Source of the DNA: Desulfobacterales bacterium | GTDB taxonomy: Bacteria; Desulfobacterota; Desulfobacteria; Desulfobacterales; C00003060 | Reading direction: 5' to 3' | Assembly (NCBI GenBank): GCA_013375375.1 | Contig: JABXJX010000003.1 | Coordinates: 1-53,471 of the forward strand | DNA: 53,471 nt | Part shown: positions 12,450 to 53,317 of the stretch, one piece after another | How the letters are laid out: every line of letters starts with the position of its first letter | Position numbering within the stretch: the first letter of the stretch is position 1 | Notes under the pieces: generated by a model | Told to the model about the DNA's origin: nothing | The model's input: only the letters and a program-made list of their open reading frames with translations | The model's database searches: none | Translations under genes and position numbers: made by a program

Positions 12450-12456
12450 CGGCTTC

Positions 12457-12563: not shown

Positions 12564-12654
12564 TGTGCCGTCCATTTGATGACTTTTTGCGAGATCATTT
12601 TCGTTAGCCCGGATAATATGTTCGGGTTAGTCCCGTGGGTGTGCCGGAGAAACT

Positions 12655-14154
12655 ATGATAGTTGTTGCTTTAGCTGGATTCGGCGTAGTGATATTGCTTA
12701 TGGCTGTTTACGGTTACAAGGTTTCCGCCAAGACCGCCGAAGACTATATGCTTGCGGGAAGGGGTATCGGCATTGCGGTGATGTTTTTCTTTGCCCTCTT
12801 TGCCATCTCAAGCGTGTGGACCTTTTACGCGTATCCGAGCATCCTATACCAGCACGGGCCAGGGTTTGTTTATTTTATATGGGGCTGTGTCGTGGGCTTT
12901 GTCATTCTTTACATGTTCATCGGCCCGCGGCTTTGGGCAGTGTGCCGGTTGAATCGATTCTTGTCGCCCATCGAGGCGATAGCCGCAAGGTATGAGTCAC
13001 CCGGGTTGCGCATTATCGTGGCGATCGTGCTGCTCGGTTCGATTATCCCCTATATTGCCGATCAGTCTCTGGGTGTGGGCCTGGGGCTGAAGGCCATGCT
13101 GGGATTCCCGCCGGTTGTGGGCATTGCCTACATTTCTTTGCTTCTAATTCTTATTGTTATGCTGGGGGGCATGCGGATTACAGCCTGGGTCAACGTGCTT
13201 CTCGGCTTGATCTACGCGTTTGCCTTTCTTGGATCTCTTGTATTTGTCATAGCCAAGGTCTTTCCGGGAGGCCTCTCAGGGGCTGTGACCGTCCTCAAGG
13301 CCAATCAGCCCGCCCTTCTCACTACGCCCGGCCCTGCGGGGTTGTTCAGGCCGGTTGTGACCTCAATTGTGTTTTTAGTGGGGGCATTGGCCTTTACCTG
13401 GCCTCACATTGTCATCAGCACCATGACCGCACAGGACAAGACCATATTCAAATGGATGCCCGCCCTGGCCCTTATCGTGGCCGGCATGCTCTTTTATACG
13501 ATTCCCTTTATCTGGGGCTCTTTGGTGGCGCCCGCCGTCAGTCACATGCCCGGTACCCTGGTCCCTCCTGTTTCCGGTAAGGAGGCGGACAAGATTGTTC
13601 AGATGATTATTAGCGCGTATCTCCCCTCCTGGTTCTCTGCGTTTGTGTTTATGGGGGTTATTGCAGCGGCCGTTTCAACGGCCGCGGTCCAGCTCATGAC
13701 GGCAAGCATTGTCGTAGGAAGGGATGTCGTTCACGGCCTCTTTTTCCCACAGAGCAGCGACCAATTTCTCATCCGAACGACCAAGGTTTCCGTTATTGCC
13801 ATTTTATTGCTCAGCATGGGCATTGCCTTCTGGTACCCTGTTGAGCTGGCCCAATACTTAGTGGGGATTGCCATACCGGGGTTTGCCCAGTGGGCGCCTT
13901 GTCTGGTGGGGGGCATTCTCTGGAAAAGGGCTACCAAAGAGGGGGCACTGAGCGGTATTGTTGTGGGCTCGGCATACTTGATCGTGGGGTTTATCTATCG
14001 GCCTGTTTTGTTCGGCCTGCATCCGGCCGTCCCCACCCTGTTTGTAAATGTGACACTCTTTATAGTAGTCAGCTTGCTCACCAGCGCGTCACGTGACACG
14101 GTGATTCGGATGTTTTTTGATGAAGTGGAAGATTTTCTCTCGAAAAAAGCGTAA
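12655..14154 (+). CDS. sodium:solute symporter (SSS) family transporter
   Basis: 499 aa with about 13 TM helices and an SSS-like sequence throughout. Confidence 0.85.
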   Translation: MIVVALAGFGVVILLMAVYGYKVSAKTAEDYMLAGRGIGIAVMFFFALFAISSVWTFYAYPSILYQHGPGFVYFIWGCVVGFVILYMFIGPRLWAVCRLNRFLSPIEAIAARYESPGLRIIVAIVLLGSIIPYIADQSLGVGLGLKAMLGFPPVVGIAYISLLLILIVMLGGMRITAWVNVLLGLIYAFAFLGSLVFVIAKVFPGGLSGAVTVLKANQPALLTTPGPAGLFRPVVTSIVFLVGALAFTWPHIVISTMTAQDKTIFKWMPALALIVAGMLFYTIPFIWGSLVAPAVSHMPGTLVPPVSGKEADKIVQMIISAYLPSWFSAFVFMGVIAAAVSTAAVQLMTASIVVGRDVVHGLFFPQSSDQFLIRTTKVSVIAILLLSMGIAFWYPVELAQYLVGIAIPGFAQWAPCLVGGILWKRATKEGALSGIVVGSAYLIVGFIYRPVLFGLHPAVPTLFVNVTLFIVVSLLTSASRDTVIRMFFDEVEDFLSKKA

Positions 14155-25381: not shown

Positions 25382-25489
25382 GTCCTGCATGAAAACCGGG
25401 TTGAAAAAGGATAATAATAAAAGGGTATTAGCATAACAAAAATAACAAAATTTACTTATGTTTTCCGGTAAATATTCCGATAAATATAA

Positions 25490-25590
25490 AGGTAAAAAAG
25501 CAAACCGTTCGAAAGGATGGGACGCAAAGCCATCGGCCTAAGTTTCGAAGTATCGGGATAGGGCGGCAGGGTTGCCCGACTTTGAAGTAT
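25490..25590 (+). promoter_or_regulatory. c-di-GMP-I (GEMM-I) riboswitch aptamer
   Basis: GCAAACCGUUCGAAAGGAUGGGACGCAAAGCCAUCGGCCUAAG...GGGAUAGGGCGGCAGGGUUGCCCGAC reproduces the conserved GEMM-I core: the GNRA-capped P1a stem, GGGACGCAAAGCC, CGGCCUAA and the GGGUUnCC 3' element, as in V. cholerae Vc2. Confidence 0.85.
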
Positions 25591-25850: not shown

Positions 25851-25885
25851 TGTTGTCTTGTTACGTATGGTTGGAGGTGAGTGAC

Positions 25886-26794
25886 TTGACGGATCGAGAT
25901 GTAACATTTGTTATAATCCCTGAAAACACCTCCCATGTGAAGCAGTTTAAGTTTTCAAGGACTTTCATCATATTTGCTGCCTGCTTTATTGCCCTAGGCA
26001 TCACGGCGGTCTCTGTCATAGTCTATGATTATTGCAAGTTAAAAAGGGCATTACCGTCGATGCGTACCCTTGAGCGTGAAGCCACGGGGCAGCGTACCCA
26101 GATTCAAGCCTTTGCCAAGAAGATCAACACCCTTAGATCAGACATTGTTGCCCTGCAGGAATTTGAGAGAAAGATACGGGTCATTGCCAATGTTGAACGG
26201 CCTGCGGACCAGGATGCCGTCTTTGGCATCGGTGGGTCGATGCCCGAAGATTTGGATGCAAGTCTTCCGTTAACCGAGAAGCATAACAGGTTGCTTCGGC
26301 AAATGCACGCCCAAGCGGAGCATCTCCATGATGCCTCAGCAATCCAGAAGGTGGCGTTTGAGGAACTTCATAAGTACCTGCAAAGCCAAAAATCTTTGCT
26401 TGCGTCAACACCAGCTATTCGGCCGAGCATTGGATGGGTCTCCTCGGGGTTTGGCTATCGCATATCTCCTTTCACCGGCCTGAAAGAGTTTCACCAAGGC
26501 ATCGATATTGCCACCCGGATGGGCACCCCTGTTATTGCACCTGCCGATGGTACTGTTGCGTTTATAGGAACAAAAGGTGGGCTTGGCAAAGCGATGGTGG
26601 TCGACCATGGATACGGTATGGCAACACGATACGGTCACCTGAAAAAATATCTGGTAAAGCAGGGCACCCGAGTCAAGCGTGGAGACAAAATCGCCCTGGT
26701 AGGAAACAGCGGACGAAGCACGGCACCGCACCTGCATTACGAAGTCCACCTTAACGGCATCCCCGTGAATCCGTCAAAGTATATCCTCAACTAA
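25886..26794 (+). CDS. M23-family (LytM) peptidoglycan endopeptidase with N-terminal TM and coiled coil
   Basis: C-terminal HQGIDIA..GTPV.APADG.V...G....G..VVDHGYG..T.YGHL......G..V..GD.I..VG.SG.ST.PHLHYEV. I prefer the TTG start at 25886, 8 nt after GGAGG. Confidence 0.85.
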   Translation: MTDRDVTFVIIPENTSHVKQFKFSRTFIIFAACFIALGITAVSVIVYDYCKLKRALPSMRTLEREATGQRTQIQAFAKKINTLRSDIVALQEFERKIRVIANVERPADQDAVFGIGGSMPEDLDASLPLTEKHNRLLRQMHAQAEHLHDASAIQKVAFEELHKYLQSQKSLLASTPAIRPSIGWVSSGFGYRISPFTGLKEFHQGIDIATRMGTPVIAPADGTVAFIGTKGGLGKAMVVDHGYGMATRYGHLKKYLVKQGTRVKRGDKIALVGNSGRSTAPHLHYEVHLNGIPVNPSKYILN

Positions 26795-37414: not shown

Positions 37415-38200
37415 ATGAAAAACCGGACACTTTTATTTGGTGAAGGTCTGTTTGAAACGTTTCGTGTCTATGCGGGCAGAAAGCTTGTTTTTGTAGAGGA
37501 CCACCTGGACCGCATGGCTGATGGGTGCCGCTTTTTTGCTCTCCCATTCTCCGGAAAGAAAGGAATGGATGCCTTGGAATCCGCCCTGGCTGAGATTCCG
37601 GATAATACTGAGGCCCGTCTTCGGCTCAACCTTATCTCCTATGGGGATCAAGGCGTGGAGGAGACAGCCTTTCGGACAACCTGGGAGCCGTTGCAGGAGA
37701 TGGAGGCCCGGCAGAGTTCGGGAGTCAAGTTGACTTTAGCGCCTTTTCAGAGATTTTCCCGTTCTCCATTGGTGAGGTTTAAGACGACCTCCTACCTGGA
37801 AAATATTTCTGCTTTCAGGTTGGCCAGAGAGCGGGGATTTTTTGATGCTCTTTTTATTAACGAGCGCGGCGAGATCACCGAAGGGTGTATCACCAATATA
37901 TTTTTTTTGAGCAAGGGACATATCTTTACCCCTCCTACAGACGCAGGCCTCCTTCCGGGTATCACGCGCAAGCAGATCATAGAGGTTGCCCGGGTGCTTG
38001 GCTTATCGGTGGCGGAATCCACGATCACACCTGCGGATTTGAACCGATTTGACGGGGCCTTTGTTACCAACTCGGTCATTGAGATCCTGCCGGTGTGCAC
38101 GGCAGGCGACACGGATTACGGGATCCCTGAAATGGTCGAGGCGCTGCGAGGGGGATACCGGAAACGCTTGGAAGCCTCTTTATTTCCCCCTGGACCATAA
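37415..38200 (+). CDS. class IV aminotransferase-fold protein (aminodeoxychorismate lyase-like)
   Basis: GEGLFETFRV and ..EGCITNIFF...G.IFTPP...GLLPGITR are typical of PabC/IlvE fold type IV. The start abuts the previous stop (TAGATG). Confidence 0.75.
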   Translation: MKNRTLLFGEGLFETFRVYAGRKLVFVEDHLDRMADGCRFFALPFSGKKGMDALESALAEIPDNTEARLRLNLISYGDQGVEETAFRTTWEPLQEMEARQSSGVKLTLAPFQRFSRSPLVRFKTTSYLENISAFRLARERGFFDALFINERGEITEGCITNIFFLSKGHIFTPPTDAGLLPGITRKQIIEVARVLGLSVAESTITPADLNRFDGAFVTNSVIEILPVCTAGDTDYGIPEMVEALRGGYRKRLEASLFPPGP

Positions 38201-38222
38201 TCTCCGACCCTCAAAAATTGGC

Positions 38223-38251
38223 TTGACATGCATCCATATTTTGCGTAAAAT
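38223..38251 (+). promoter_or_regulatory. consensus-like sigma-70 promoter
   Basis: TTGACA-N17-TAAAAT. The -10 element overlaps the first ATG of the downstream ATPase ORF. Confidence 0.5.
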
Positions 38252-39524
38252 GGAGAGCATGATATCCATTTTTATAGAAAGAGAGATCGCCAAGTTCGCT
38301 TTTTCAGATGAGTGGCTGGACAGCACCATGCTCTTCATTGCCGGTCCGCGCCAGTGCGGGAAGACGTCGTTGGCCCGCAAATTCTTGGAAGAAAAAGGTT
38401 GTTCGTCTTTATATTACAACTGGGATATTGAAAAGGTCAGGAAGAGGTATCGTGGGGACCCGGATTTTTTTGTCAAAGATGCCTCGCAGTTACGAATTGA
38501 AAAACCTTATGTGGTCCTTGACGAAATCCATAAGGTTACCCGCTGGAAGAATATCCTTAAAGGCGTTTACGATGAATATCAGCATCTGATCAGCATCATT
38601 GTGACAGGCAGCGCCCGTCTTGACCTTTTTAGAAGAAGCGGCGATTCTCTGGTGGGGCGTTACACCATGGCTCATCTGTTTCCTTTTTCGCTGAGGGAAT
38701 GGGCCGGCGGCATCAATGATATACCCTCCTCCTGGCTGCACGAAGATGGCGACTGGAAAAATACGGCAAAAGCCCTCGATACCAAGCTCGCCGATTCTCC
38801 GTTCGTTTCAAAAGATCTGGCGGAATCCTACTACAGGTTTGGACCCTTTCCGGCTCCCCTTATTTCAGGGTCTGAAAAGCGGTCTCGGAAATGGCACAGA
38901 GATTATATCACTCTTCTGGTAAGAGAGGATCTGCGTGACCTGTCCGGTATTCGGGAACTGGACCGGGTTTCTCACCTGGTGGAATTGCTTCCCAGCCGTG
39001 TGGGGTCACCGCTTTCCCTTCGAAGTCTGGGAGAGGATCTTGAAGCCAACCACTCCACTGTAAGGAACTGGCTTGAAGCATTGCACAGGCTCTATTTGGT
39101 TTGGCCGCTTCGCCCCTATTCGGGCAAGCTGCATCGCACCCTCCGTAAAGAGCCCAAATGGTATTTTCTTGATTGGACCTTTGCCGGCAGTGAAAGCGGC
39201 CGGTTTGAAAACCTGATTGCAAGTGCATTATATCGGTTTGTCACCAGCCTTTATGATCGGGGTTGGCCGGAAGTGAAGCTTCATTATGTCAGAACATACG
39301 ATAAGAAAGAGATCGATTTTGTACTTACACTGGCCGAAAAACCTATTTTGGCGATTGAGGCCAAACTCGGTGATGCAAGATTCTCACCTCAACTAAGAAG
39401 GTTCTGCGAAGCTGTAGGGGGGAAATTCCCTATATTGCAGGTAGTCAGTCAGCCAGGAGTTTTTCTGAGGAAGGGTCCAGGTGAGTATTTGGTCGGTTAT
39501 GACAGGCTGCTGATGGTTCTTTAG
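38250..39524 (+). CDS. AAA-domain ATPase with DUF4143-type C-terminal region
   Basis: The segments IAGPRQCGKTSL (Walker A) and VVLDEIHK (Walker B) are followed by a C-terminal PD-(D/E)xK-like segment (EIDFVL..ILAIEAK). The start is either 38250 or 38259; the upstream part of the track ORF overlaps the pabC-like gene. Confidence 0.8.
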   Translation: MESMISIFIEREIAKFAFSDEWLDSTMLFIAGPRQCGKTSLARKFLEEKGCSSLYYNWDIEKVRKRYRGDPDFFVKDASQLRIEKPYVVLDEIHKVTRWKNILKGVYDEYQHLISIIVTGSARLDLFRRSGDSLVGRYTMAHLFPFSLREWAGGINDIPSSWLHEDGDWKNTAKALDTKLADSPFVSKDLAESYYRFGPFPAPLISGSEKRSRKWHRDYITLLVREDLRDLSGIRELDRVSHLVELLPSRVGSPLSLRSLGEDLEANHSTVRNWLEALHRLYLVWPLRPYSGKLHRTLRKEPKWYFLDWTFAGSESGRFENLIASALYRFVTSLYDRGWPEVKLHYVRTYDKKEIDFVLTLAEKPILAIEAKLGDARFSPQLRRFCEAVGGKFPILQVVSQPGVFLRKGPGEYLVGYDRLLMVL

Positions 39525-39644
39525 CACATTGGTTGAAAGATTCGTGTTGCCACTGGCATGGGATATTTTTCAAATTCTTTAGTGAATGTCTTCTGAAAAG
39601 AAAGGTTGCATAAGGGCCTGAAAATAGTATCAACCGCTTCTCGT

Positions 39645-39672
39645 TTGACAAATCGCTGTTATTCTATATGAT
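39645..39672 (+). promoter_or_regulatory. sigma-70-like promoter upstream of the mod gene
   Basis: TTGACA-N16-TATGAT, about 30 nt upstream of the mod ATG. Confidence 0.4.
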
Positions 39673-39702
39673 TGTGGATGGACACAAACCAGGGAACTGA
39701 TT

Positions 39703-41625
39703 ATGGATAAGAATAGCTTGAGGACAAACGAGGTAAATCAAACTGGGCTTTACTGGCCCACCAAAAGGACAGAAGTTGAGAGGGTAATCCTTCCTTTCCA
39801 GACAGTAGAGACTATAAATGAGTCCAAGGCGGACAGGGATGAACTGACCCTCTTCAGGCAAAGGGGTAAGCCCGCCCCTGGCTGGAGGAACAAGCTCATC
39901 TGGGGCGATAACAAATACATCCTCGCAAGCCTCCTGCCTGAATTTGCGGGAAAGATCAACCTCATTTACATTGACCCACCGTTTGCTACCGGAGCAGACT
40001 TCTCCATCAATATCAAACTCGGTGATCTGAAATGGACAAAAGAGGCATCGGTCATTGAGGAAAAAGCATATCGGGATACCTGGGGCAGGGGCCTGGATTC
40101 TTATCTCCAGATGATGTATGACCGGGTGGTGCTGATGCGGGAACTATTAGCGGACAATGGTTCTATTTATGTCCACCTTGATTGGCATGTTGGACATTAC
40201 ATAAAGATTATTCTGGATGATGTGTTTGGGAAAGAGAATTTTGTTAATGAGGTGATTTGGCAAAAGATTAGATCTTCAAAGGGGCAAAGCAGAGGGTACG
40301 GAAATGTACACGATATAGTTTTGTTTTATGCCAAAGCAGCGGGCTATCAATTCAACAAGCCTTATGTGGAACTGGATCAGAAGTTACTAAAGACTCATTA
40401 CAAGTATGTTGAGGAAAAAACTGGGCGTGTGTATCAGTTATGTGATCTTACTCAGAGTGGGGCGGGACCAGCGAGAAAATTTGGGAAAAATAAATTGCTG
40501 GAACCACCACCAGGTAAGCACTGGATCTGGTCTCAACATAAGATAGATGAGGCAATGGGCAACGGGCGCATAGTCTTTACAACAGGGAAGATGCCAAGGT
40601 TAAAGAGGTATTTAGACGAGTCTAAAGGCAATCCAGTGGAAGATATTTGGAGCGATATTTATCCTATTAATTCGATGGCGAAAGAAAGGTTGGACTATCC
40701 TACACAAAAACCTGAGACTCTTTTAGAACGTATCATTAAAGCCTCTTCAAACGAAGGCGACCTCGTAGCCGATTTTTTCTGTGGCTCCGGCACTGCTGCG
40801 GCTGTTGCCGAAAAACTTGGTAGGCGGTGGATCGCAGCAGACCTCTCCAAATTTGCTATCCACACCAGCCGCAAGCGGCTTCTGGACATTCCGGACTGTA
40901 AGCCATTTGAAGTCTTGAACCTTGGCAAATATCAGAAGGCGAAACTCAAGGAGAACGGAGTTAGTGGCTACGTTGACTTTATCCTGAAACTCTATCGGGC
41001 TGAACCTCTCTCCGGTTATACCATCCTACATGGCAAGAAGGCGGGGCGAATGGTGCATATTGGTGACGTGGACTCCATTGTCACCGAGCGGGAGATAAGG
41101 GAGACGGTCAAAGAATGTGCCTCAACCGGCGTAAAATCAGTTGACATCCTGGGGTGGGATTTTGAGATGGGACTGCATGATTTAGTTGATAGGATTGGGG
41201 ACGAGCATTCTGTCAAGATTCGCCTGGTACAGATCCCCAGGGAAGCTCTTGAGGTCAGGGATGTGGCAAGGGAAGAGGTAAAGTTCTTTGATCTAAATTA
41301 TCTTGAGATAGCCCACAAATTGAAGAGGGAAACGTTAACTATTATGCTGAAAGACTTTGTCATCTCCAATCCGGAGTATCTGCCCGAAGAGGTGAGAGGG
41401 AAGGTCAAAAAGTTCTCCGACTATATTGACTACTGGGCAGTGGACTTTCATTACAAAGACGACACCTTCCACAATATGTGGCAGTCCTTCCGCACACGAA
41501 AGCATCCTAGTCTTGAGACAAAATGTTCTCATACCTATGAGAAGGCCGGGAAGTATCAAGTTCTGGTCAAGGTGGTGGATATTTTTGGAAATGACACGAA
41601 TAAGTTGCTTGAAATAAAGGTTTAA
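39703..41625 (+). CDS. mod: Type III-like DNA methyltransferase (Mod; beta-class N6A/N4C MTase) with long C-terminal extension
   Basis: Motif IV ([11 protein letters not shown]) precedes motif I ([25 protein letters not shown]), which is the beta permutation. The C-terminal extension is about 250 aa and ends in a PKD-like strand pattern ([17 protein letters not shown]). Confidence 0.85.
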
Positions 41626-41629
41626 TACG

Positions 41630-42661
41630 ATGGCTCGTGGTGATCTATTAAAAAGGCTTTTTCTTACTTACCTCCAGCGGAATGATGATGCCTTCCGGAG
41701 TGTTGCTATGGAGATTATAGCAGAGGAACAAAAGAAGAACCACACACTTCTTGCAGGGGAACTTCAGAGAATCCTTTCTAATAGTGCGATGAACAACTCA
41801 ACAGTTGAACCACGATATGACCTTTCTTCGCTACCCAAAGATCGGGAACGTCATGCCCTTTTAGTAGAAATACGAAAGGCTGAACGGTACTTCCCAGATA
41901 TTATTCTCTCAAAAGAAAACCAGAAAACAATCGAGGAAATCATGGAGGAATTCCGACGGGGCGAGATTCTACGGTCTCATGGCATAAACCGTAGAACGAA
42001 GTTATTGTTCTGTGGCCCCCCCGGATGTGGCAAGACGCTTCTCGGAGAAGTTATAGCGGCAGAATTGGGACTGCCGATTCTATATACGAGGTTTGACACT
42101 ATAGTTTCTTCGTATCTCGGCGAAACATCAGCCAATTTACGCAAGGTATTTGATTATGCAACAAGGGGTACATGGGTTATTTTTTTTGACGAGTTTGATG
42201 CTATTGGAAAAAGCCGGGATGATCTCACAGAGCATGGTGAACTAAAGCGTGTCATCAACAGTTTTTTGCAGCTTTTGGATGGATTTAGAAGTGAAAGCTT
42301 GGTTATAGCCGCAACAAATCACGAGCATCTTTTAGATACTGCTCTATGGAGAAGATTTGATGAGATTTTGCGATTGGAACGTCCATCCGTACAGGATATT
42401 CGAATCCTGCTAACCAAGAAACTTGCCAGCATTCCGCATCCTCAAATAAAGCCAGAAGCAATTGCTTCTAGCCTGAAAGGTTTATCTCATGCTGAAGTTG
42501 AGCGTGTTTGTTATGATGCAATTCGACTTTGTGTACTTCGTGATTCTTCAGAAGTTACACCTGAATTGTTTGAAGAATCCATGGAGAGGGAAAAGCAGCG
42601 CCTAAAAATTATTCGTACAGCAGACAAACGGATTAAAAATTCCGTGAAGGCGTCTAAGTAA
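41630..42661 (+). CDS. classical AAA ATPase (IetA-like)
   Basis: Walker A (GPPGCGKTLL), Walker B (VIFFDEFDAIG), sensor-1 (VIAATNH) and Arg finger (ALWRRFD). It starts 4 nt after the mod stop. Confidence 0.8.
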   Translation: MARGDLLKRLFLTYLQRNDDAFRSVAMEIIAEEQKKNHTLLAGELQRILSNSAMNNSTVEPRYDLSSLPKDRERHALLVEIRKAERYFPDIILSKENQKTIEEIMEEFRRGEILRSHGINRRTKLLFCGPPGCGKTLLGEVIAAELGLPILYTRFDTIVSSYLGETSANLRKVFDYATRGTWVIFFDEFDAIGKSRDDLTEHGELKRVINSFLQLLDGFRSESLVIAATNHEHLLDTALWRRFDEILRLERPSVQDIRILLTKKLASIPHPQIKPEAIASSLKGLSHAEVERVCYDAIRLCVLRDSSEVTPELFEESMEREKQRLKIIRTADKRIKNSVKASK

Positions 42662-42664
42662 GTT

Positions 42665-45280
42665 ATGGCTGACGAAAACGTTAAAAGATATGCTCATCTT
42701 CTTCTTCCTCGTGCCGAGGTTGAACTGGAAAGAAGGCAACGGCGAGGCTTCAGTGTCGTATCACCTAAGCCATTTGCTGAGCATGGGTCACAGATAAACA
42801 CGCAAGTTGGTTCCGCACTCCAGCAATTTCAATCCCGTGCACAAAGGCGACCTCCTGGCATAGATCCAAAACTGCTTCTTCGGATCCGTCTTGAGAGAGC
42901 AGGAGCTATCCCAGATGACGAATGGCGCAAAAACGGTCTTATTCTTGTTTCTGAAGAACGTGATGGGGTGACAGTTCTTTTGGCCGGTGAACCCGAATTG
43001 CTTGCCTTCCAGCACCGTCTTCGCGATTATCAACACGGCCCACGACCACAGAAAAAGACGTCTGCAAAACAAGAAATTTTGCCAGAAGGAATGAAATTTC
43101 CTGATCTTCTGAAGGATAAAATTCAATACGATGCTGACAAAAAGCAACTGATCTTTGAAGGCGTTATGTCCCAGGAAGAGAAGGATGAATTATTAAAACT
43201 GTCACCGGACGACCGGTATCAAAAAGCTGTAGAAGCACTCTTCCAGAATTCCCAGAAACCACCATATGCGTCATTATTTGATGCAATCTTAAAAGTTCGG
43301 GAATACGGACCAGAAGATCGGAAAGGTAAACTGTTGCAAGAGGCCACACTTGAATCAACGAAAGAATATGCGTTGGATTTGGAGCTTTGGCATCCAGGGG
43401 ATACCAATGTAGCCCGTCAATCCCTTTCGCAAGTTGAGACATTTATCTCCCAGCAAGGCGGAAGGGTTGTGGATCGCTATATTGGAACATCGGTTTGTCT
43501 TGCACGAGTGATTGTGCAAGGAAATATAATAGACCAACTCCTTCAACTGGAGCCTGTTGCCAAACTGGATTTGCCACCGAGACCCACCTTAACGGTTGCT
43601 GAGGTATCGCGACTGACCTTGGAGGATTTCCCTCCCATTACAAGACCTCCTTCCGAGGCTCCCCGTGTTTGTGTGTTGGATAGTGGGATTGCAACTGGAC
43701 ATCCAATGCTATCTCCGGCAGTAGGCGATTCAATTTCTGTTCCCTCTTCTCTTGGCTCATCTATTGATGAACATGGTCATGGAACACAGGTGGCTGGACT
43801 TGCTCTCTACAACGATATTTCAGAATGCATTCGAACCCGCCAGTTTAGTCCTTCTCTGTGGGTTATGAGTGCGAAGGTCACCAAAATGGAGGATGGACCT
43901 TTTGGTCGCGAGATAAGGTTCCCCGATGAAAAACTTATCTCCACCCAAATGCGTGAAGCCATTGAATATTTCTACAGAGAACACGAATGTAGGGTTTTTA
44001 ATATTTCTCTCGGTGATGACCGATTAGTTTATGATGGGGGCAAACCTTCTATCTGGGCATGGACACTTGATGACATAGCGAGAGAGTTAGATGTAATAAT
44101 CATTGTATCATCTGGCAATTCGCCAGTTTTACAGACTGACGATCCAAAGGATAATCTTGATGGATATCCAAAATATCTTCTGTGCGCAGAAAACAGGATA
44201 GTTGAACCCTCAACGGCAGCGATACCTCTTACAGTAGGCTCGCTGGCTCATTCGGAAGCCCCTCGTGGAGCCGGTGGTCGAGATGATATAGCGTTAAGAG
44301 CAGTTGCTCAAAAGGATATGCCATCGCCATTTACTCGAATAGGCCCTGGAATTGGGGGTGCTGTGAAGCCTGAACTCTGTGAGTATGGGGGTAACCTTGT
44401 TTTTGATCACCGTCTAAACAGGCTACAGGATAAAAATCTTGAAGTTGAAATTGTTTCCTTCTGCCATGATTATGCAACCGGAAGACTTTTTGCTTGGGAC
44501 AAGGGAACTAGCTTGGCTGCTCCCAAGGTTACTCATTATGCGGCCCAGCTTTTATCTATTTTTCCCCGGTCTTCTGTAAATTTGGTTCGTGCGCTTTTGG
44601 TCAGTTCGGCCTCAATTCCTGAAGTAGCAAAGGAAGTTCTTTCAGTTTCGGGTAACGATGAATACCTCAAAGTCTGCGGCTATGGTAAACCAAATTTCAA
44701 TGTAGCTGCCTACTCATTTGATAATAGAGTCACCTTGTTTGCAGAAAATGAACTTTTGGGGGATCGTTTTCATGTTTATGAAATCCCCCTGCCAGATATT
44801 TTTAGACACACAAGGGGCAAGCGGAGTATAACCGTTACGTTGGCATTTGATCCCCCTACCCGTCATACCCGAAAAGATTACCTTGGATTTACCATGAAAT
44901 TCTGGCTAGTCAGAGGGAAAACTTTAAAGGAAGTAGAGAGAATTTTTGTAAAAACTAAACCAAGGGAAGAAACAGTGCAGGGTATTTCTGGCGCACGTTT
45001 TGAGTGTGATTTAAAACCTGGTCATAGGATAAGAGAGCGAGGGACGCTGCAAAAGGGTATATTTTCCATGAGCAGAAATCCTGACGAGACATATGGGGAC
45101 ACCTATTACCTTGTGGTGCAGTGTGTCAGAAATTGGAGCTATGAAGAAAAGCAACGCTACGCAGTCGTTGTAGCTCTGGAACACTTAAGTTTGGAAGCTA
45201 CATTATTTGAAAGAGTTAGCCTTTATCAGGCGGTTCAAGAGCAAATTGAAGCAAGGGAGCGCATTCTCATAAGGCATTAA
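42665..45280 (+). CDS. S8-family subtilisin-like serine protease (IetS-like), 871 aa
   Basis: The catalytic triad is intact: Asp (RVCVLDSGI), His (DEHGHGTQVAGLA) and Ser (DKGTSLAAPKVTHYAAQL), plus the oxyanion Asn (SSGNS). It starts 3 nt after the AAA stop. Confidence 0.8.
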   Translation: MADENVKRYAHLLLPRAEVELERRQRRGFSVVSPKPFAEHGSQINTQVGSALQQFQSRAQRRPPGIDPKLLLRIRLERAGAIPDDEWRKNGLILVSEERDGVTVLLAGEPELLAFQHRLRDYQHGPRPQKKTSAKQEILPEGMKFPDLLKDKIQYDADKKQLIFEGVMSQEEKDELLKLSPDDRYQKAVEALFQNSQKPPYASLFDAILKVREYGPEDRKGKLLQEATLESTKEYALDLELWHPGDTNVARQSLSQVETFISQQGGRVVDRYIGTSVCLARVIVQGNIIDQLLQLEPVAKLDLPPRPTLTVAEVSRLTLEDFPPITRPPSEAPRVCVLDSGIATGHPMLSPAVGDSISVPSSLGSSIDEHGHGTQVAGLALYNDISECIRTRQFSPSLWVMSAKVTKMEDGPFGREIRFPDEKLISTQMREAIEYFYREHECRVFNISLGDDRLVYDGGKPSIWAWTLDDIARELDVIIIVSSGNSPVLQTDDPKDNLDGYPKYLLCAENRIVEPSTAAIPLTVGSLAHSEAPRGAGGRDDIALRAVAQKDMPSPFTRIGPGIGGAVKPELCEYGGNLVFDHRLNRLQDKNLEVEIVSFCHDYATGRLFAWDKGTSLAAPKVTHYAAQLLSIFPRSSVNLVRALLVSSASIPEVAKEVLSVSGNDEYLKVCGYGKPNFNVAAYSFDNRVTLFAENELLGDRFHVYEIPLPDIFRHTRGKRSITVTLAFDPPTRHTRKDYLGFTMKFWLVRGKTLKEVERIFVKTKPREETVQGISGARFECDLKPGHRIRERGTLQKGIFSMSRNPDETYGDTYYLVVQCVRNWSYEEKQRYAVVVALEHLSLEATLFERVSLYQAVQEQIEARERILIRH

Positions 45281-45318
45281 GAATTAAGACTGAGTACCGC
45301 TATTACGGCGAAGTAATT

Positions 45319-47826
45319 ATGGCAGCCATCGACTTAGACCAAAAAGTCAAACAGGTTCTCCAGGCGTGGCGAGAAAGGGACTACGAAGGGGCAAGCCTTG
45401 TTACAAGAAGGCTCCTTGAGTTCTGGTTCAAGGAGGAGCATATCTTACCTAATGGCTCACGCTTTGAGTTCTGGCAATGTCAACGGGAAGGGATTGAGGC
45501 CCTGATCTATGTGTATGAGGTCTGCAAATACCAAAGCCTTTATGAGTTAGCGAGGGGCTTTGAAGTGAGTATCCCGGTTGACCCTACCAAAGACCTCTGG
45601 CCCAAATATTGTTTCAAGATGGCTACCGGCTCGGGAAAGACCTGGGTGATGGCTCTGGCGATGGTCTGGCAGTATTTCAACAAGCTTTTCGGCACTGATA
45701 ATGGTGTCCGCTACTCCAGCAATTTTCTTCTCCTTGCCCCCAACCTAATTGTGCTGGACAGGCTATATGGAATATCAGTGGAAGGGGATATAGATAAAAG
45801 TGGTTTTGCTAACAACGCCGTTTTCTCCAATTTTCCTTTTATTCCCCCTGAGTGGCAGGCAGATCTTGATTTAGAACTCATTTTCCAGAGTGAGGTCATT
45901 CCAAGAACCGCAAGGGGTATCCTTCATCTTACCAATATCCAGCAACTTTACGAAAGAGAGCTGGAAGGTGCGGTTAATCCCGTGGATGAGGCCGTTGGTC
46001 CCAAGCCAAAGCGGGAAGAAGAGGCCATATACGATTCCTTGCGGGTCGAGCTTTCTAACTATGATGACCTGATGGTCTTAAATGATGAGGCCCACCATGT
46101 CCACAGCGATGACCTTGAGTGGAACAAGGCAATTGCCTATCTGGATTCAACTCTCAACGAGGGGAACGGCAATGGGTTAGTTATGCAACTTGATTTTACG
46201 GCAACCCCCAAGGACCTCCAGGGCAACCTCTTTCCTCACATCATATACGACTATCCCCTGGCAGAGGCCATCGGAGACAAAATTGTTAAACGTCCCTGCA
46301 TTGGAGAGATTGAGAATGTCCCTGAGCCTCTGGGTAAGGATTTTGTCAAAAAAAACCGTCTCCAGATTGATACGGGTGTGGAGATTCTCAAAGAGTTTCA
46401 AAAGGAGTTCAAGCATTCAGGTAAGAAGCCTGTTCTTTTCATTATGACGGACGTGACAAGAAATGCCAAGAAGGTAAGGGAGTATTTGGAGAAGCAGGGA
46501 TTTGTAGGGAAGGTTCTGGAAATCCATACTGATAAGAAAGGCGAACTCACCAAAAAAGGTCTAAAAGAGGCAAGATCGGCAGCCAGTAAGATTGACAAGC
46601 CTGAAAATCCTTATGAAATCATCGTCAGCGTTATGATGCTCAAGGAAGGTTGGGATGTCAGAAATGTCTGTGTCATTGTCCCTCTGAGAGCCTTTGATTC
46701 TCCGGTTCTGCCTGAGCAGACCTTAGGAAGAGGTTTACGGCGGATGGCCCCCCAGGATGAAGCTTGGGAGGAGAAGCTTATCGTCGTTGACCATCCACGC
46801 TTTCGCCAACTCTGGCAGGCGGAAATTGATAAAGGGGAACTGGTGGCAGACTTTACCTCTGCTAAGAAAGCCTATGAACCAAGTAACCTTGTAATGGTCA
46901 GCCCTGAAAAACTTCAGTTTGATATTGAGATTCCGGTTGTGGAAGGCGGACTTACGAGGGCAGTGCCGGATTTGGCGAGATTCGATATAGCACGACTTCC
47001 CTCAAAGCTCTTTAGGCTGTCGGAGATTAAATTGCCAAAGATGAGGTATCGGGAAAGGGATTTAATAGAGCAAAAGATTGTCAGGGAAAAGATTCTGGCC
47101 TTTGACTATACAGAAAATTTTTCTCTATATCTCTCATACATCTGCAAAGCCATTACATCCAAGACAGGGACCTCAAGCATCTTTGTAGAGCTTGTTCCAA
47201 AGGTAAGAGCATATATCGAAAATTACCTTTTTGACCAGAAGGTAAATGGTGAGAACCTGGAAGTCACAAAGAAGCTCAACTACATCCCTATCAGAGACAA
47301 ACTGGTGGAGACTTTTTCCAGAGAAATCAACGCCCTTTCCAAGAAGGAAGAAAAGCTCAGTATCCATAGACACTTTAGGTTAAGTGAAACACAACCCCTT
47401 CATACCTCTGAGCCCATCACAAAGGCAAGAAAGACCGTCTTTCAAGCGTTGCCTTATCCCAAACGCAGTGCCTTTGAAAAGGAATTTATCCGCTATCTGG
47501 ACGAGAAGGATGAGGTGCTGGCATTTACCAAGATGCTGTCCAGGCATCCGCTCCATATCCCTTACTACAACCAGGAGGGGTGTTTACGCTACTACCTGCC
47601 TGATTTTGTTGTTAGGGAAGAACGGGCGATGTATCTTGTAGAGACCAAAGGGATGGAGGGAGCGGAGGTGCCAATAAAGGACAGAGAGGCCCTGCGCTGG
47701 TGTGACAATGTGCAAAAGCTGTCTGGGAATTACTGGAAGTATTTGAAAGTAAGGCCACAAGACCTTGAGGCTTATAGAGCCCAAGATTTTAGAACTTTGG
47801 TTGAAGGAACCCTTGTGAGGAGTTGA
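45319..47826 (+). CDS. res: Type III restriction enzyme Res subunit-like SF2 helicase-nuclease
   Basis: Motif I (KMATGSGKTWVMA), motif II (LNDEAHHV), motif V region (MLKEGWDVRNV) and motif VI (QTLGRGLRR). The C-terminal PD-(D/E)xK is YLPDFVV..MYLVETKG. Confidence 0.85.
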   Translation: MAAIDLDQKVKQVLQAWRERDYEGASLVTRRLLEFWFKEEHILPNGSRFEFWQCQREGIEALIYVYEVCKYQSLYELARGFEVSIPVDPTKDLWPKYCFKMATGSGKTWVMALAMVWQYFNKLFGTDNGVRYSSNFLLLAPNLIVLDRLYGISVEGDIDKSGFANNAVFSNFPFIPPEWQADLDLELIFQSEVIPRTARGILHLTNIQQLYERELEGAVNPVDEAVGPKPKREEEAIYDSLRVELSNYDDLMVLNDEAHHVHSDDLEWNKAIAYLDSTLNEGNGNGLVMQLDFTATPKDLQGNLFPHIIYDYPLAEAIGDKIVKRPCIGEIENVPEPLGKDFVKKNRLQIDTGVEILKEFQKEFKHSGKKPVLFIMTDVTRNAKKVREYLEKQGFVGKVLEIHTDKKGELTKKGLKEARSAASKIDKPENPYEIIVSVMMLKEGWDVRNVCVIVPLRAFDSPVLPEQTLGRGLRRMAPQDEAWEEKLIVVDHPRFRQLWQAEIDKGELVADFTSAKKAYEPSNLVMVSPEKLQFDIEIPVVEGGLTRAVPDLARFDIARLPSKLFRLSEIKLPKMRYRERDLIEQKIVREKILAFDYTENFSLYLSYICKAITSKTGTSSIFVELVPKVRAYIENYLFDQKVNGENLEVTKKLNYIPIRDKLVETFSREINALSKKEEKLSIHRHFRLSETQPLHTSEPITKARKTVFQALPYPKRSAFEKEFIRYLDEKDEVLAFTKMLSRHPLHIPYYNQEGCLRYYLPDFVVREERAMYLVETKGMEGAEVPIKDREALRWCDNVQKLSGNYWKYLKVRPQDLEAYRAQDFRTLVEGTLVRS

Positions 47827-47863
47827 ATGAATTACACGCCATAGTCTGTCAGGATCGGTTAAC

Positions 47864-48970
47864 ATGCAGAAAATTTTTTGTGTAGAAGACAAATTGATCA
47901 ATGAGATTTTAGATCGGCATAAGCGTAAAAAGGGACAAATCTATATCCATTTCAGTGAAATTATCAAAGAGGTCCTCGAGTTTGCCGACAGATTTATTGC
48001 TCCTTCCCGTGGAGGCACGATCTACATAGACGACCCGTCATCCCGCGTTTATTATGAAGACGGAAACCTTGATTATAGTAAAACAGAACTCGTTTTTGCA
48101 GCGTGTTTTGGTTATAAGTCGGAAGGCTTAGTCGGTCGTTCCATCACCGCCGACAAAGGCATAGTAGGACATGTCTATAGAACCAGCGAGCCCCTGCTGG
48201 TTGACGATGTCGCCAATAATCCGTTTTTTGATCCAGGGTACAGCCGTGAGCTTGGCCTGGTTTCAGACAGCATTCTTGCCGTTCCGATAATTATTGAAAA
48301 TACGACCATAGGCGTTCTTCAATTAATCAATAAAAAAGGAAAGGGTCTCTACTCAAAACAGGACCTCGATCTTGTCAACTACTTTTGCGAACGATATATA
48401 GCCAATAATATTATCCGGGCCATAGAGTTCAAAAAAGATTCTCTCACAGGGCTGTTTAATCAAAAACACTTTGAACCCCGCCTTAAAGATAAGCTCGACC
48501 ATTTAAAAACAAGAAAGAAAGACGGCTATCTCTATTTTATAGATTTGGATTCATTCAAGGCGGTCAACGACACCTTTGGGCACAGAACCGGGAGCAGGGC
48601 AATTGTCCTGGTAGCCGGTTTTCTTGGTAAATATATTTTTGATAGATACGAAAGAAAAGCATTGGCGGCGCGATACGGCGGCGACGAATATGAAGTCTTT
48701 ATTCCTGACATAGAACAAAAAAAGGCGATCGAATTGGCAAAAGAGATTCGCGATGGAATCGCCAGGCTCAAGATGAATGTAATTGACGAGAACGGAAAAG
48801 AGATAAACGCATTAGAAGGCGTGACAGCAAGTATAGGAGTTGCTTCAACATCCAACAAGTTTGCAACAGCAGAGGAATATATAAGACTTGCAGACAAGGC
48901 CATGTATCAGGCCAAGATGTTGAAAAACAGTATTTGCTTCCTCCACAATGATCAATATACTATCATATAA
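47864..48970 (+). CDS. GAF-domain diguanylate cyclase (GGDEF)
   Basis: GAF-like N-terminal half (GIVGHVYRTSEPLLVDDV..SILAVPII..IGVLQLINK). The GGDEF domain reads DSLTGLFNQ..FIDLDSFKAVNDTFGH..ARYGGDEYEVF. Confidence 0.85.
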   Translation: MQKIFCVEDKLINEILDRHKRKKGQIYIHFSEIIKEVLEFADRFIAPSRGGTIYIDDPSSRVYYEDGNLDYSKTELVFAACFGYKSEGLVGRSITADKGIVGHVYRTSEPLLVDDVANNPFFDPGYSRELGLVSDSILAVPIIIENTTIGVLQLINKKGKGLYSKQDLDLVNYFCERYIANNIIRAIEFKKDSLTGLFNQKHFEPRLKDKLDHLKTRKKDGYLYFIDLDSFKAVNDTFGHRTGSRAIVLVAGFLGKYIFDRYERKALAARYGGDEYEVFIPDIEQKKAIELAKEIRDGIARLKMNVIDENGKEINALEGVTASIGVASTSNKFATAEEYIRLADKAMYQAKMLKNSICFLHNDQYTII

Positions 48971-49055
48971 TCTTACCGGCCGGTCCGGCCATTAATCCCA
49001 ACAAGATATGTTCCATCTAATACACTTTTTGAGAGCTTTGCATAGCTCCTTTTCA

Positions 49056-49853
49056 CTACAATGGCTGAGGCCCTGCCTCGGTGTAAGCATAGGCGCTGTG
49101 GTTGTGAATGCTTTCAAAGTTTTCCGCTTCTACACTAAACGAGATAAATCTCGGGTCTTTTTTCAATTTATCAGTAACCTCTCTCACGACATCTTCCACG
49201 AACATCGGTCGGCTGTATGCCTGTTCCGTGATAAATTTTTCATCCTCCCTTTTCAAGAGCGCAAAAACCTCACTGCTTGCCGAGCCTTCAACGATTTCAA
49301 TGATTTCCTCAATCCAAAAGAACTCCTTAAAGAGGAGGGTTACCGAAACAACGCCCCGCTGGTTGTGGGCCCCTTGAGAGCTGATCTCTTTTGAGCATGG
49401 ACAAAGGGTACAGACCGGCACCTTGACGCCAATTAAGAGCTTGCGTTCAGTTCCATTTATTTCCCCTATGTATTTGCATGTGTACTGCATCATGCTGGGC
49501 ACGCCTGACACAGGCGCATTCTTTTTGATAAAATAGGGGAATCTGATCTCCAGATTGGCAGCCGGGGCATCAAGACTATTTTTTATTCTGTCAAGCATTT
49601 CAAAGAAGGTTTTTAGATTCAAGTCGGCACAATAATCGTTCAGGACCTCCACAAACCTGCTCATGTGAGTCCCTTTGAAGCGGTGGGGCAGGTGTACATA
49701 CATGTTGACCGTTGCCACGGTAGCCTGAGTCTTGTTGGTCCTGTCCAGGACATTTATCGGATACTTGATTCCTTTGATGCCGACCCTGGTAAGATCAATG
49801 TTGCGGTCATCAGGTTCGTTTTGAACGTCTTTTAAATTCGTAATTCCCTGCAT
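49056..49853 (-). CDS. folE2: GTP cyclohydrolase I type 2 (FolE2/MptA)
   Basis: DVQNEPDDRNIDLTRVGIKGIKYPI.., ..HMSRF.E.L.. and ..CTLCPCSKEIS..GAHNQR are characteristic of FolE2. Confidence 0.85.
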   Translation of the reverse strand: MQGITNLKDVQNEPDDRNIDLTRVGIKGIKYPINVLDRTNKTQATVATVNMYVHLPHRFKGTHMSRFVEVLNDYCADLNLKTFFEMLDRIKNSLDAPAANLEIRFPYFIKKNAPVSGVPSMMQYTCKYIGEINGTERKLLIGVKVPVCTLCPCSKEISSQGAHNQRGVVSVTLLFKEFFWIEEIIEIVEGSASSEVFALLKREDEKFITEQAYSRPMFVEDVVREVTDKLKKDPRFISFSVEAENFESIHNHSAYAYTEAGPQPL

Positions 49854-51714: not shown

Positions 51715-52275
51715 CTATGCGCTTTGCCCTTTGCCCTGTAGCTTCCTTTGAACATTTATGTTCATTTCGTCGTAGGACCTGAAAATAATCTTCTCCCGCT
51801 CCAACCGCTCTTGCGGAAAAGACTGAAGTTTTACTCCTTTCATGCGTTCAACAGCTTCCTCCCTGGAAGGAATCCCTTCCATGTCGCGATCAAGGACCTC
51901 GCCGGTGACGGTATCGAGTAGTTCCGCGTCCTTTCCGTCCGTGACTACAGAAAATGGGATTTGGTAGGCATCCAGCAACCTGGCTGCGGCCAGGGTTTCT
52001 CGTTGCCTCGATACCAGGGACCCCGGCACGCATTTCAGTATCATGAACCTTTTTCCCTGAACGCTGACAACAAGGTCTACATTGGAACGGACCTCCTCGT
52101 CTCCGATGCTGAACTTAAGATCCGCATCCACTTCAATATCATCTTTGCTGTAACCCTTTGTTTTTACCAGAAAGCGTTCCACCTGCTGTCTGTTTTCTTC
52201 AGCCCCGATGTTCGGGATCTCACTTCCTGTCACAAAATCGGTAATCATTTCATAAGGCTTTGGCTTTTCTATCAT
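51715..52275 (-). CDS. HsdR-N-terminal-like (PD-(D/E)xK fold) domain protein
   Basis: E.NRQQVERFLV...GY....I.....F......SNVDLVV..QGKRFMILKC...SL resembles type I restriction enzyme R N-terminal domain proteins. RBS AAGGAGA. Confidence 0.55.
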   Translation of the reverse strand: MIEKPKPYEMITDFVTGSEIPNIGAEENRQQVERFLVKTKGYSKDDIEVDADLKFSIGDEEVRSNVDLVVSVQGKRFMILKCVPGSLVSRQRETLAAARLLDAYQIPFSVVTDGKDAELLDTVTGEVLDRDMEGIPSREEAVERMKGVKLQSFPQERLEREKIIFRSYDEMNINVQRKLQGKGQSA

Positions 52276-52315: not shown

Positions 52316-53317
52316 TCAGTTTTCAGGATTGATCTCTTTCTTCAACAGACAACAGGCAATCTTATATTTCGGTTTTCCCTGTTTATCGTAGCTCAGGTTG
52401 CCGGGTTGAATAAGCTTGTTCATCACACAGCCCTCTGGAATTGAGAGCTGAAACAAATCCTTTTCATTAACAGGATGGGTCGGCACGGGCTTGTTTTTCT
52501 CAAAGACGTAGGAATGGAGCGGAAAATCTTCGCACAGGGGACATTGATAAACCCTGCCGTTGGGAAAGATAAAGTAGTTTTCCGCAACCAGGCCCGCACA
52601 TTCAAAATGTTCCGAGTTGTCCAAGAACACTTTAGGATAGGTGACGTGGATACCGAGTCGTGCTGCTCCGGCTGCCACTCTCGGCACAACAGCGCCCCAT
52701 TCCTTTCTGGTTAGCTGGGACTTTCGTTTTTTGCCCTGTACTGATTTCCCTCTAATTCCAATAACTTGAATGAAAAACCTATCGATGCCGAGGGCCTTTA
52801 AAAAATTCGGCATGTTTTTCAAATCATGGATATTCGATCGGCTGACTGTGTAGATTAAGCTGATCTTAAATCCCTTTGAAAGGGCCTTCTCTATACCGGC
52901 AACACACTTGTCGTAACTCCCCCTCCCACGGATAAGGTCGTTGACCTCCTTGCAAGAACCGTCCAGGCCGACACTAAAATAGTCGAGTTCTTCAGGAGTC
53001 ACTTTTTTAAGGATGTGGTTCAAGAAGAACCCGTTCGTGTCCACGGTGATCGAAGCGTAACCCATCTTCCTGGCGGCCTTGATCATGATGTGAAGGTCAG
53101 GGTGCAGCGTGGGCTCGCCGCCTATGAAGATGAGGTTAGATTCCCTTTTTTCATGGCTCAGCGCCTTTAACCACTTTTTTGTGGTCTCGAGCGGAAGGGT
53201 TTGTTTGCCGTGCTGCTCGGGGTTGATATAGCAATGCCGGCATTTTAGATTGCATCGGGTCAATATATGAAAGAATATGTTCCTTGCGTTTTTATGAAAG
53301 GCTACGGTCTTTGTCAT
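52316..53317 (-). CDS. radical SAM protein with C-terminal Cys-rich (SPASM/twitch-like) region
   Basis: The CNLKCRHC segment is the CxxxCxxC motif, followed by IFIGGEPTLHPD. C-terminal cysteines occur in HFECAG..YQCPLCE..IACC. Confidence 0.8.
   Translation of the reverse strand: MTKTVAFHKNARNIFFHILTRCNLKCRHCYINPEQHGKQTLPLETTKKWLKALSHEKRESNLIFIGGEPTLHPDLHIMIKAARKMGYASITVDTNGFFLNHILKKVTPEELDYFSVGLDGSCKEVNDLIRGRGSYDKCVAGIEKALSKGFKISLIYTVSRSNIHDLKNMPNFLKALGIDRFFIQVIGIRGKSVQGKKRKSQLTRKEWGAVVPRVAAGAARLGIHVTYPKVFLDNSEHFECAGLVAENYFIFPNGRVYQCPLCEDFPLHSYVFEKNKPVPTHPVNEKDLFQLSIPEGCVMNKLIQPGNLSYDKQGKPKYKIACCLLKKEINPEN

Follow-up and report, generated by a model that had tools for sequence, protein, structure and literature searches.

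An IetAS-like ATPase-protease pair between the mod and res genes of a Type III-like restriction-modification operon

IetAS, a pair of an AAA ATPase (IetA) and an S8 protease (IetS), was reportedly described as an anti-phage system by Gao et al. 2020. In DNA of a Desulfobacterales bacterium (contig JABXJX010000003.1, positions 1 to 53,471; this whole stretch of 53,471 nucleotides is called the window hereafter), we found genes for such a pair between mod and res, the methylase and restriction genes of a Type III-like restriction-modification (R-M) operon. A preliminary description, made from the sequence alone, had noted this order and proposed that the four genes form one composite unit.

PMC13069673 and PMC3339403, citing the original work, present IetAS as a plasmid-stabilising toxin-antitoxin (TA) pair, first described from pTiC58. 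The protease IetS is the toxin and the ATPase IetA the antitoxin, and the molecular mechanism is termed unknown (PMC13069673). In B. cereus, IetAS alone acts by abortive infection, the trigger being the SPbeta protein YosG (bioRxiv 10.1101/2022.08.27.505566). The window pair resembles described IetAS in being adjacent and co-directional, in its strong PADLOC profile matches, in its intact Walker A/B motifs and D-H-S triad, and in the Y4kK domains shared with homologues. It differs in lacking both a promoter-like site and a regulator of its own and in lying inside the operon of another system. It also falls under the NCBIfam equivalog cut-offs, and its IetS carries an extra ~70 aa.

With Type III R-M of the EcoP15I/EcoP1I type, the window shares a beta-class Mod with a target-recognition region between motifs IV and I, the order of mod before res, and a Res made of an SF2 DEAH helicase with a C-terminal PD-(D/E)xK nuclease; there are sequence links to both EcoP15I Mod and Res. 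It differs in that mod and res are 3.7 kb apart, neither adjacent nor overlapping, and in that Res belongs to a divergent BPTD_3080-like family and is shorter (835 aa vs 970).

BrxU in BREX is one example of a defence gene embedded in another defence system. In the embedding survey of Payne et al. 2024, the hosts are only Hma, BREX, DISARM and Type I R-M, and 96.7% of the genes found embedded in this way run in the same direction as their host system (bioRxiv 10.1101/2024.01.29.577857). TgvAB is nested in a Type I R-M system of V. cholerae (PMC11411939). The window fits this kind of embedding, as its cargo is nested co-directionally, cargo and host each occur separately, and the cargo found at related junctions overlaps the Payne candidates PDC-S02, PDC-S13, PDC-M19A and HEC-09; the host, however, is here a Type III R-M system.

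Two further systems are close in plan. PrrC, an anticodon nuclease carried by the Type Ic system EcoprrI, is likewise encoded by a suicidal effector gene inside a restriction operon and is a plausible backup once restriction is defeated. PrrC is nearly confined to Type I R-M loci, where it is embedded, and the R-M proteins keep it latent (PMC12707154; bioRxiv 10.1101/2024.01.29.577857), whereas IetAS is mostly standalone and active alone. The ietHAS system (Liu-DS4, PMC13069673) also joins IetAS and a helicase-family ATPase in one operon. Its essential helicase is SNF2/DrmD-like and comes without a methylase, whereas the window partners are a complete Type III Mod and a ResIII-type Res.

In the literature searched, we found neither a description of mod-ietAS-res nesting nor a report of IetAS as embedded cargo. 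The earlier remark that no described system of this organisation is known holds, in that literature, for the nested order, but not for its ingredients, because co-localisation of Type III R-M (RM III) with ietAS (bioRxiv 10.1101/2022.08.21.504612) and embedding in general (bioRxiv 10.1101/2024.01.29.577857) are both published. The parts are known families, IetAS and Type III R-M; new are this combination of host and cargo and the evidence for a hotspot at the mod|res junction.

The mod-ietA-ietS-res operon

The features of the operon are as follows, all on the + strand of the window; related loci are referred to by L numbers.

39645..39672, + strand, sigma-70-like promoter candidate TTGACA-N16-TATGAT upstream of mod (consensus match)
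39703..41625, + strand, mod, open reading frame (ORF) of 640 aa, Type III beta-class N6/N4 DNA methyltransferase
40260..40684, + strand, variable target-recognition region inside mod, without DNA homology to L083
41615..45289, + strand, mobile ietAS cassette made up of ribosome-binding site, ietA and ietS, drawn from the homology limits in standalone loci
41630..42661, + strand, ietA, ORF of 343 aa, classical-clade AAA+ ATPase, antitoxin-like partner
42665..45280, + strand, ietS, ORF of 871 aa, S8 subtilase, toxin/effector, Y4kK domains at the N-terminus and a beta domain at the C-terminus
45319..47826, + strand, res, ORF of 835 aa, Type III-like restriction subunit, SF2 helicase with a C-terminal PD-(D/E)xK nuclease

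The intergenic gaps are 4 nt (mod/ietA), 3 nt (ietA/ietS) and 38 nt (ietS/res), and all four genes share the + strand. The 3693 nt between mod and res are filled by ietA and ietS, so the two genes lack the adjacency of Type III R-M, and ietA precedes ietS on the same strand with a 3-nt gap, as in IetAS. The promoter candidate matched 11 of 12 consensus positions and was the top hit in 39300-49100, in a scan that assumed sigma-70 promoters, which may not be the host's. A terminator scan found no convincing terminator between the four genes. The operon-like packing is tight and stands behind a single good promoter match, and the catalytic motifs of all four proteins are intact. The preliminary description was accurate on this layout, including the 39703-47826 limits, the gaps and the one obvious promoter-like element, and its protein motif readings were also borne out, namely the beta-class order in Mod, the DEAH helicase and C-terminal nuclease in Res, the AAA motifs and the D-H-S triad of the 871-aa subtilase.

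Mod matched the PADLOC profile MTase_III (1.1e-125) and Pfam N6_N4_Mtase (9.5e-43). Motif IV (DPPF91) precedes motif I (FCGSG359), with the variable target-recognition region between them, which is the beta-class order. In the PDB, Mod matched a Type III Mod (6k0w, 4e-23) and EcoP15I Mod (4zcf_A, 1.7e-17). No phase-variable repeat was found in mod.

Res was recognized by PADLOC REase_III (4.7e-29) and Pfam ResIII (2e-14), and marginally by RE_endonuc (8e-5, 22.9 bits vs a cut-off of 23.4). It has the motifs of a Type III Res, namely GSGKT104, DEAH256, TAT294, QTLGRGLR467 and P761-D762 ... E775-x-K777. As a single sequence Res had no match in the PDB, and its family profile reached EcoP15I Res (4zcf_C) at 1.5e-10. 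The nearest NCBIfam family was the BPTD_3080-family restriction endonuclease (2.3e-76, under the cut-off of that family). Res matched Pfam ResIII and not SNF2-rel_dom, and so does not correspond to the helicase of ietHAS.

IetA matched PADLOC IetA PDLC02196 at 1.5e-96 over residues 8-324 of 343 aa, and Pfam AAA at 5e-32. It carries GPPGCGKT129 (Walker A, K135), VIFFDEFD183 (Walker B, D187/E188) and RRFD241, and resembles the D2 domain (ring) of the unfoldases p97/Cdc48 (2.6e-50). IetS matched PADLOC IetS PDLC02198 (5.6e-148) and Pfam Peptidase_S8. Its residues D339, H372, N485 and S616 are invariant across 47 homologues, with an intact D-H-S triad, and the homologues bear PF27160 and PF27210 (N-terminal Y4kK domains). 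A search of the PDB with IetS gave no structure past the subtilisin core. The best matches of an AlphaFold (AF2) model of IetS (pLDDT 85) were pro-form subtilases that retain the propeptide and a C-terminal beta domain. From this model and the p97/Cdc48 likeness of IetA, we infer that IetS may be a latent, zymogen-like protease kept in check by the unfoldase.

The identification of an IetAS-like pair thus stands on the PADLOC profiles, and not on the stricter NCBIfam ones: IteA reached 261 bits against a cut-off of 510 and IteS 112 against 900, below the equivalog level set for the tested E. coli pair. Judged by these scores, the window IetAS is best assigned to a divergent subfamily and not to the equivalogs of the E. 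coli pair. The extra ~70-aa segment (residues ~125-195) is found in IetS of the window clade. It was considered as an R-M-specific IetS domain and rejected, as the insert is present in the standalone loci L085 and L174 and absent from the nested L175.

Relatives of the operon and history of the ietAS cassette

The nearest IetS relative (86% identical) is in L083/L084, two assemblies with the same four genes and the same gaps of 4, 3 and 38 nt. At the DNA level, L083 is homologous to the window over the whole unit (39727-47777) and has other flanks. The sole break is 40260-40684 in mid-mod, which we assign to the target-recognition region of mod because the identity of Mod to L083 is 7-35% there vs 82-95% elsewhere. 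Target-specificity swapping is usual in Type III Mod genes. All four genes had a ratio of nonsynonymous to synonymous divergence (dN/dS) of 0.09-0.18 against L083, signifying purifying selection. In this nearest relative, the four genes travel as one block.

The embedded arrangement, with cargo between the genes of the host system and in the same orientation, recurs beyond the window in L083/L084, L175, L057 and L063. In L175 (IetS 74% identical), mod, ietA and ietS are followed by the end of the contig, exactly where res starts. L057, from a metagenome-assembled genome (MAG) of Methanophagales, has the nested order with 37-40% identity in all four genes, and its ietS and res are frameshifted or fragmented. 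In L063, five further genes stand between mod-ietA-ietS and res. The first two are those of an AAA_15/21 ATPase and an unknown protein; the other three, for a multi-ubiquitin protein (Multi_ubiq), a Prok-E2_E and a JAB-E1 (JAB-ThiF) fusion, form a Bil-like ubiquitin set. With an RloB-like gene upstream, this locus (L063:6028-19710) amounts to a small defence island within a restriction operon. ORFs in the related loci were called mechanically, and many loci are MAG or metagenome contigs in which assembly errors are possible.

The composition of ietAS differs from that of its neighbours. The G + C content at third codon positions (GC3) is 0.36 in ietA/ietS, 0.52 in mod/res and 0.58-0.62 in host genes, and ietAS was below the adjacent mod/res in 9 of the 10 other linked loci compared. 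Synonymous divergence (dS) from L083 reaches 0.97 in res and 1.78 in mod, against 0.40 in ietA and 0.44 in ietS, and a breakdown into 100-codon windows placed the low values in ietAS only.

The cassette also has recurrent limits. In standalone relatives, homology to the window opens 14-40 nt ahead of the ietA ATG and closes at or just past the ietS stop, or extends into remains of mod and res:

L085, homology 41615-45607, HTH (helix-turn-helix) gene upstream, a 288-nt res stub kept
L174, homology 41615-45289, HTH gene upstream
L081, homology 41014-45536, C-terminal mod stub and N-terminal res stub, Type ISP enzyme adjoining
L176-178, homology from 41590, within a cobalamin operon, last 36 nt of mod kept
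L086, homology from 41616, mobile-element context

The mod/res stubs indicate that the standalone copies of the window clade descend from nested ones, and those of L081 and L085 that ietAS stays intact while restriction genes decay. The small HTH gene, of Xre type, stands in place of mod ~12 nt 5' of ietA (L085:2279-2482, L174:586-789), suggesting that the cassette may gain a regulator of its own outside the restriction operon. In L176-L178 (e.g. L176:808-5695), the cassette lies between cobU and a CbiA-family gene; this was seen on nine contigs. In L087, ietAS comes after a UvrA-like gene. In L082 (2604-13445) and L086 (1117-9519), ietAS (IetS 67% identical) ends a phage/mobile-element-like replication and recombination module with sliding-clamp and Rad52 homologues and a PD-(D/E)xK nuclease, to which L082 adds a DNA polymerase A domain and a DNA ligase. 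A WYL regulator follows ietAS in both, and in L086 then GmrSD and several TIR-domain genes.

Standalone ietAS is also found on plasmids, where ietAS in general is abundant (422 records, mostly conjugative). All the E. coli ietAS variants that we reached were standalone, in lambdoid, Rac or P2 prophages or in an integrative and conjugative element (ICE); a copy linked to RM III was sought among them and not found. A megablast search of 5,426 E. coli genomes with the operon gave no match. Insertion scars were rejected, as the cassette is flanked by neither direct nor inverted repeats.

Together, ietAS is a compositionally distinct cassette with an evolutionary history apart from that of mod and res. 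The proposal of one composite unit agrees with the block shared whole with L083; it is at odds with the distinct GC3 and dS of ietAS, its occurrence alone, a Res family mostly without ietAS, the other cargo at the junction (see below), and the abortive infection by IetAS alone (bioRxiv 10.1101/2022.08.27.505566). An ancient, co-diverging four-gene unit would fit L057, with 37-40% identity in all four genes. It was rejected as a general explanation since GC3 and dS split ietAS from mod/res in nearly every locus, and ietS and res of L057 are also frameshifted.

To place the linkage with Type III R-M, we took the 80 best IetS loci from an alignment-based scan of one-genome-per-species contigs; a scan of the species genomes with the single IetS protein gave no match. 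Type III-like mod and/or res stood beside ietAS in 11-12 of the 80 species loci, and ~68/80 had no Type III R-M within 10 kb, these and the following enrichment figures being raw counts that ignore kinship between loci. Among predicted viral contigs the rate was lower, with Type III genes near ietAS in 1-2/19. The near-exclusive association with one R-M type seen for PrrC was thus not found (11-12/80 genome and 1-2/19 viral-contig loci). Three gene orders occurred: nested (L057, L063), mod-res-ietAS (L001) and ietAS-mod-res (L047, L048, L053, L056, L060, L062, L068, L078). The linked loci were in bacteria and in one archaeal MAG. A Type III-type methylase was the commonest immediate same-strand neighbour of ietAS (8/75, vs 3/75 for a Type I/IIG-type N6_Mtase).

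When IetS was clustered by identity at the 50% level, linked loci fell into 5 of 16 clusters, indicating at least seven separate linkage events. In E. coli, RM III and ietAS are among the few defence pairs that co-localise non-randomly (Wu et al., bioRxiv 10.1101/2022.08.21.504612). The juxtaposition of ietAS and Type III R-M is recurrent, lineage-independent and not random.

The host operon was surveyed by scanning metagenome contigs with the Res profile and keeping the 80 nearest relatives (32-76% identity). Of these, 79 had no ietAS; the remaining one, L170, has the order ietA-ietS-mod-res, and none was nested. Nearly all are plain mod-res operons, often with overlapping stop and start codons. 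The related mod-res pairs were adjacent in ~60/77, in agreement with the earlier statement that mod and res normally are. As cargo and host, ietAS and mod/res each occur without the other.

In 17 of the 77 pairs the mod|res gap exceeded 350 nt, and ~14 of these gaps contain co-directional ORFs. We annotated DUF3800 three times (PADLOC DUF3800_VII), a NYN nuclease (HEC-09-like), a YhcG/DUF1016 PD-(D/E)xK nuclease (PDC-S02, 8e-131), a Bro-N protein (PDC-S13, 3e-117), a Schlafen AlbA_2/HATPase_c_4 protein, a PIN-like DUF5615 protein and, in L095, a proteasome-subunit-like protein adjoining a PDC-M19A-like ORF. The cargo of L135 consists of three genes without Pfam or PADLOC match. These loci are within the Res-centred set L091-L170 (e.g. 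L135:415-2302, L095:440-1614, L154:8318-9757). Several of the cargo families are among those that Payne et al. report as embedded in Type I R-M, BREX and DISARM (bioRxiv 10.1101/2024.01.29.577857). With other cargo in about one in five pairs, the mod|res junction is a site of insertion in general, and it looks like an uncatalogued embedding hotspot of Type III R-M.

Explanations of the nested order

With some reserve, we consider it probable that the window carries a canonical Type III mod...res operon whose mod|res junction took up a self-contained IetAS cassette, so that two mechanistically separable layers of defence come from one transcript. All four genes would be transcribed together from the mod promoter. 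Mod would methylate the host DNA, and the first line of defence would be the cutting of incoming, unmethylated DNA by Mod-Res. IetAS would form a TA-like second line, aborting the infections that escape restriction: the IetS subtilase would be held inactive by the p97-like AAA+ ATPase IetA until a phage protein or another infection cue frees it, leading to proteolysis of its targets and abortive infection. Nesting would bring co-regulation and co-inheritance of two complementary layers, and addictive TA behaviour may additionally stabilise the locus. IetAS would not be an obligate subunit of the restriction enzyme. Overall, the findings speak for a cassette that is embedded but mobile in its own right, more than for one co-evolved machine.

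Several points weigh against an inserted, separable cassette. The linkage with Type III is more specific than simple defence-island clustering predicts. In the window IetS clade (>=65% identity), 8 of 12 distinct loci have a present or past Type III adjacency. It comes in two gene orders and involves three mod/res lineages, whose Mods are 61-72% (first lineage), 45% (L001) and 32% (L089) identical to that of the window. This adjacency at clade level hints at a functional tie beyond co-regulation. The lower dS of ietAS could come partly from codon or composition constraints rather than from recent exchange; because of this possible contribution of codon usage, we treat the dS gap as supporting and not decisive. 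Finally, the promoter and terminator scans behind the single transcript are consensus matches, and the sigma-70-type promoters that they assume may not be those of the host.

A guard model, in which IetAS is functionally coupled to the Type III enzyme in the manner of PrrC and EcoprrI, monitors Mod/Res and fires its protease when the complex stalls or is disabled by a phage anti-restriction factor, is credible, if rather unlikely. The nesting in an operon matches the PrrC precedent (PMC12707154), and the Type III linkage is recurrent and polyphyletic, takes three gene orders and is seen in one archaeal MAG as well as in bacteria. Closely related ietAS cassettes adjoin three different mod/res lineages, and the RM III/ietAS pair is non-random in E. 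coli (Wu et al., bioRxiv 10.1101/2022.08.21.504612). That IetAS can be wired to a helicase partner is indicated by ietHAS, whose helicase is essential and, when mutated, unleashes toxicity (PMC13069673). Yet the same census left ~68/80 ietAS loci without Type III R-M within 10 kb, and IetAS defends alone, with a phage-protein trigger that has no known restriction link (bioRxiv 10.1101/2022.08.27.505566). Moreover, no IetA or IetS domain or insertion tracks with R-M linkage, ietAS is intact where mod/res have decayed (L081, L085), and the partner Mod and Res proteins are down to 24-32% mutual identity, disfavouring a conserved protein interface. Unlikely in our estimate is also the wider claim that IetAS, or at least the window clade, is a dedicated Type III partner, a protease-based guardian that senses inhibited or stalled Mod/Res and then kills the cell, with the mod|res junction more broadly a previously uncatalogued embedding hotspot whose unannotated cargo (e.g. 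the three genes of L135 and the proteasome-like gene of L095) would be new defence genes.

The cassette could instead be a selfish hitch-hiker, an addictive TA element in a permissive transcribed gap that is hard to lose and brings no benefit to restriction. Its foreign composition, its abundance on plasmids (the 422, mostly conjugative, records) and its presence in unrelated operons, such as between cobU and a CbiA-family gene in L176-178, agree with this, as do the use of the same junction by many other cargoes and the first description as a plasmid-stabilising TA pair, as cited in PMC13069673 and PMC3339403. We find it distinctly improbable all the same: neutral insertion leaves unexplained the three gene orders and the enrichment beside Type III over the commoner Type I/II systems, and the four-gene block is under purifying selection in a different context (L083). 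Very improbable, to our mind, is proteolytic control, in which the AAA+ unfoldase/protease pair would set the levels of Res or Mod, giving restriction alleviation or letting the system settle safely in a new host, by analogy with ClpXP and the Type I HsdR. Degradation of HsdR by ClpXP is an established precedent (PMC12707154), IetA is p97/Cdc48-like, and the position of the cassette delays res relative to mod. But IetAS works without R-M (bioRxiv 10.1101/2022.08.27.505566), nearly all members of this Res family lack ietAS, and IetS acts as a toxin rather than as a housekeeping regulator (PMC13069673).

The recurrent and fairly specific pairing gives a testable hypothesis of layered or guarded defence and a natural four-gene construct. 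It extends the defence-within-defence principle to Type III R-M, and new systems might be sought at the mod|res junction as in Type I, BREX and DISARM. Should the modules prove fully separable, the locus would be one more case of defence-island modularity.

Genomic surroundings of the operon

The window is a chromosomal metagenome contig. Upstream it encodes SecA, ArgJ, EF-G, ParA/ParB, a YacP nuclease and a class IV aminotransferase, followed by a candidate defence ATPase. On the other side, a diguanylate cyclase gene follows res, and then folE2. The two genes next to the operon are:

38049..39524, + strand, PDC-S01 candidate defence ATPase with AAA_14 and DUF4143 (PADLOC PDC-S01 5.8e-57; Pfam)
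47864..48970, + strand, GAF-GGDEF diguanylate cyclase (Pfam GGDEF and GAF), fifth co-directional gene

The PDC-S01 ATPase gene is directly 5' of mod. It is missing from L083 and hence outside the conserved four-gene block. Its listed TTG start overlaps the aminotransferase gene by ~150 nt, and for this reason the true start is probably further downstream. The GAF-GGDEF gene begins 37 nt past the res stop and is not kept in L083, where homology stops at 47777. It may receive read-through from the operon, as there is no terminator between res and this gene. The operon and its neighbours have a G + C content below that of the housekeeping genes. We found no tRNA genes in the window, and an adjacent tRNA integration site for the cassette was rejected on this ground.

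Farther away, a small protein with HSDR_N_2, the N-terminal domain of the Type I restriction R subunit, is encoded on the - strand (51715-52275) and adjoins a radical SAM gene (52316-53317). A c-di-GMP-I riboswitch (25489-25579, 67 bits vs a gathering score of 35) lies 5' of an M23 peptidase gene (25853-26794). The AT skew is strongly negative, about -0.30, at 12001-14000, across a sodium:solute symporter gene, and probably reflects the codon content of a membrane protein.

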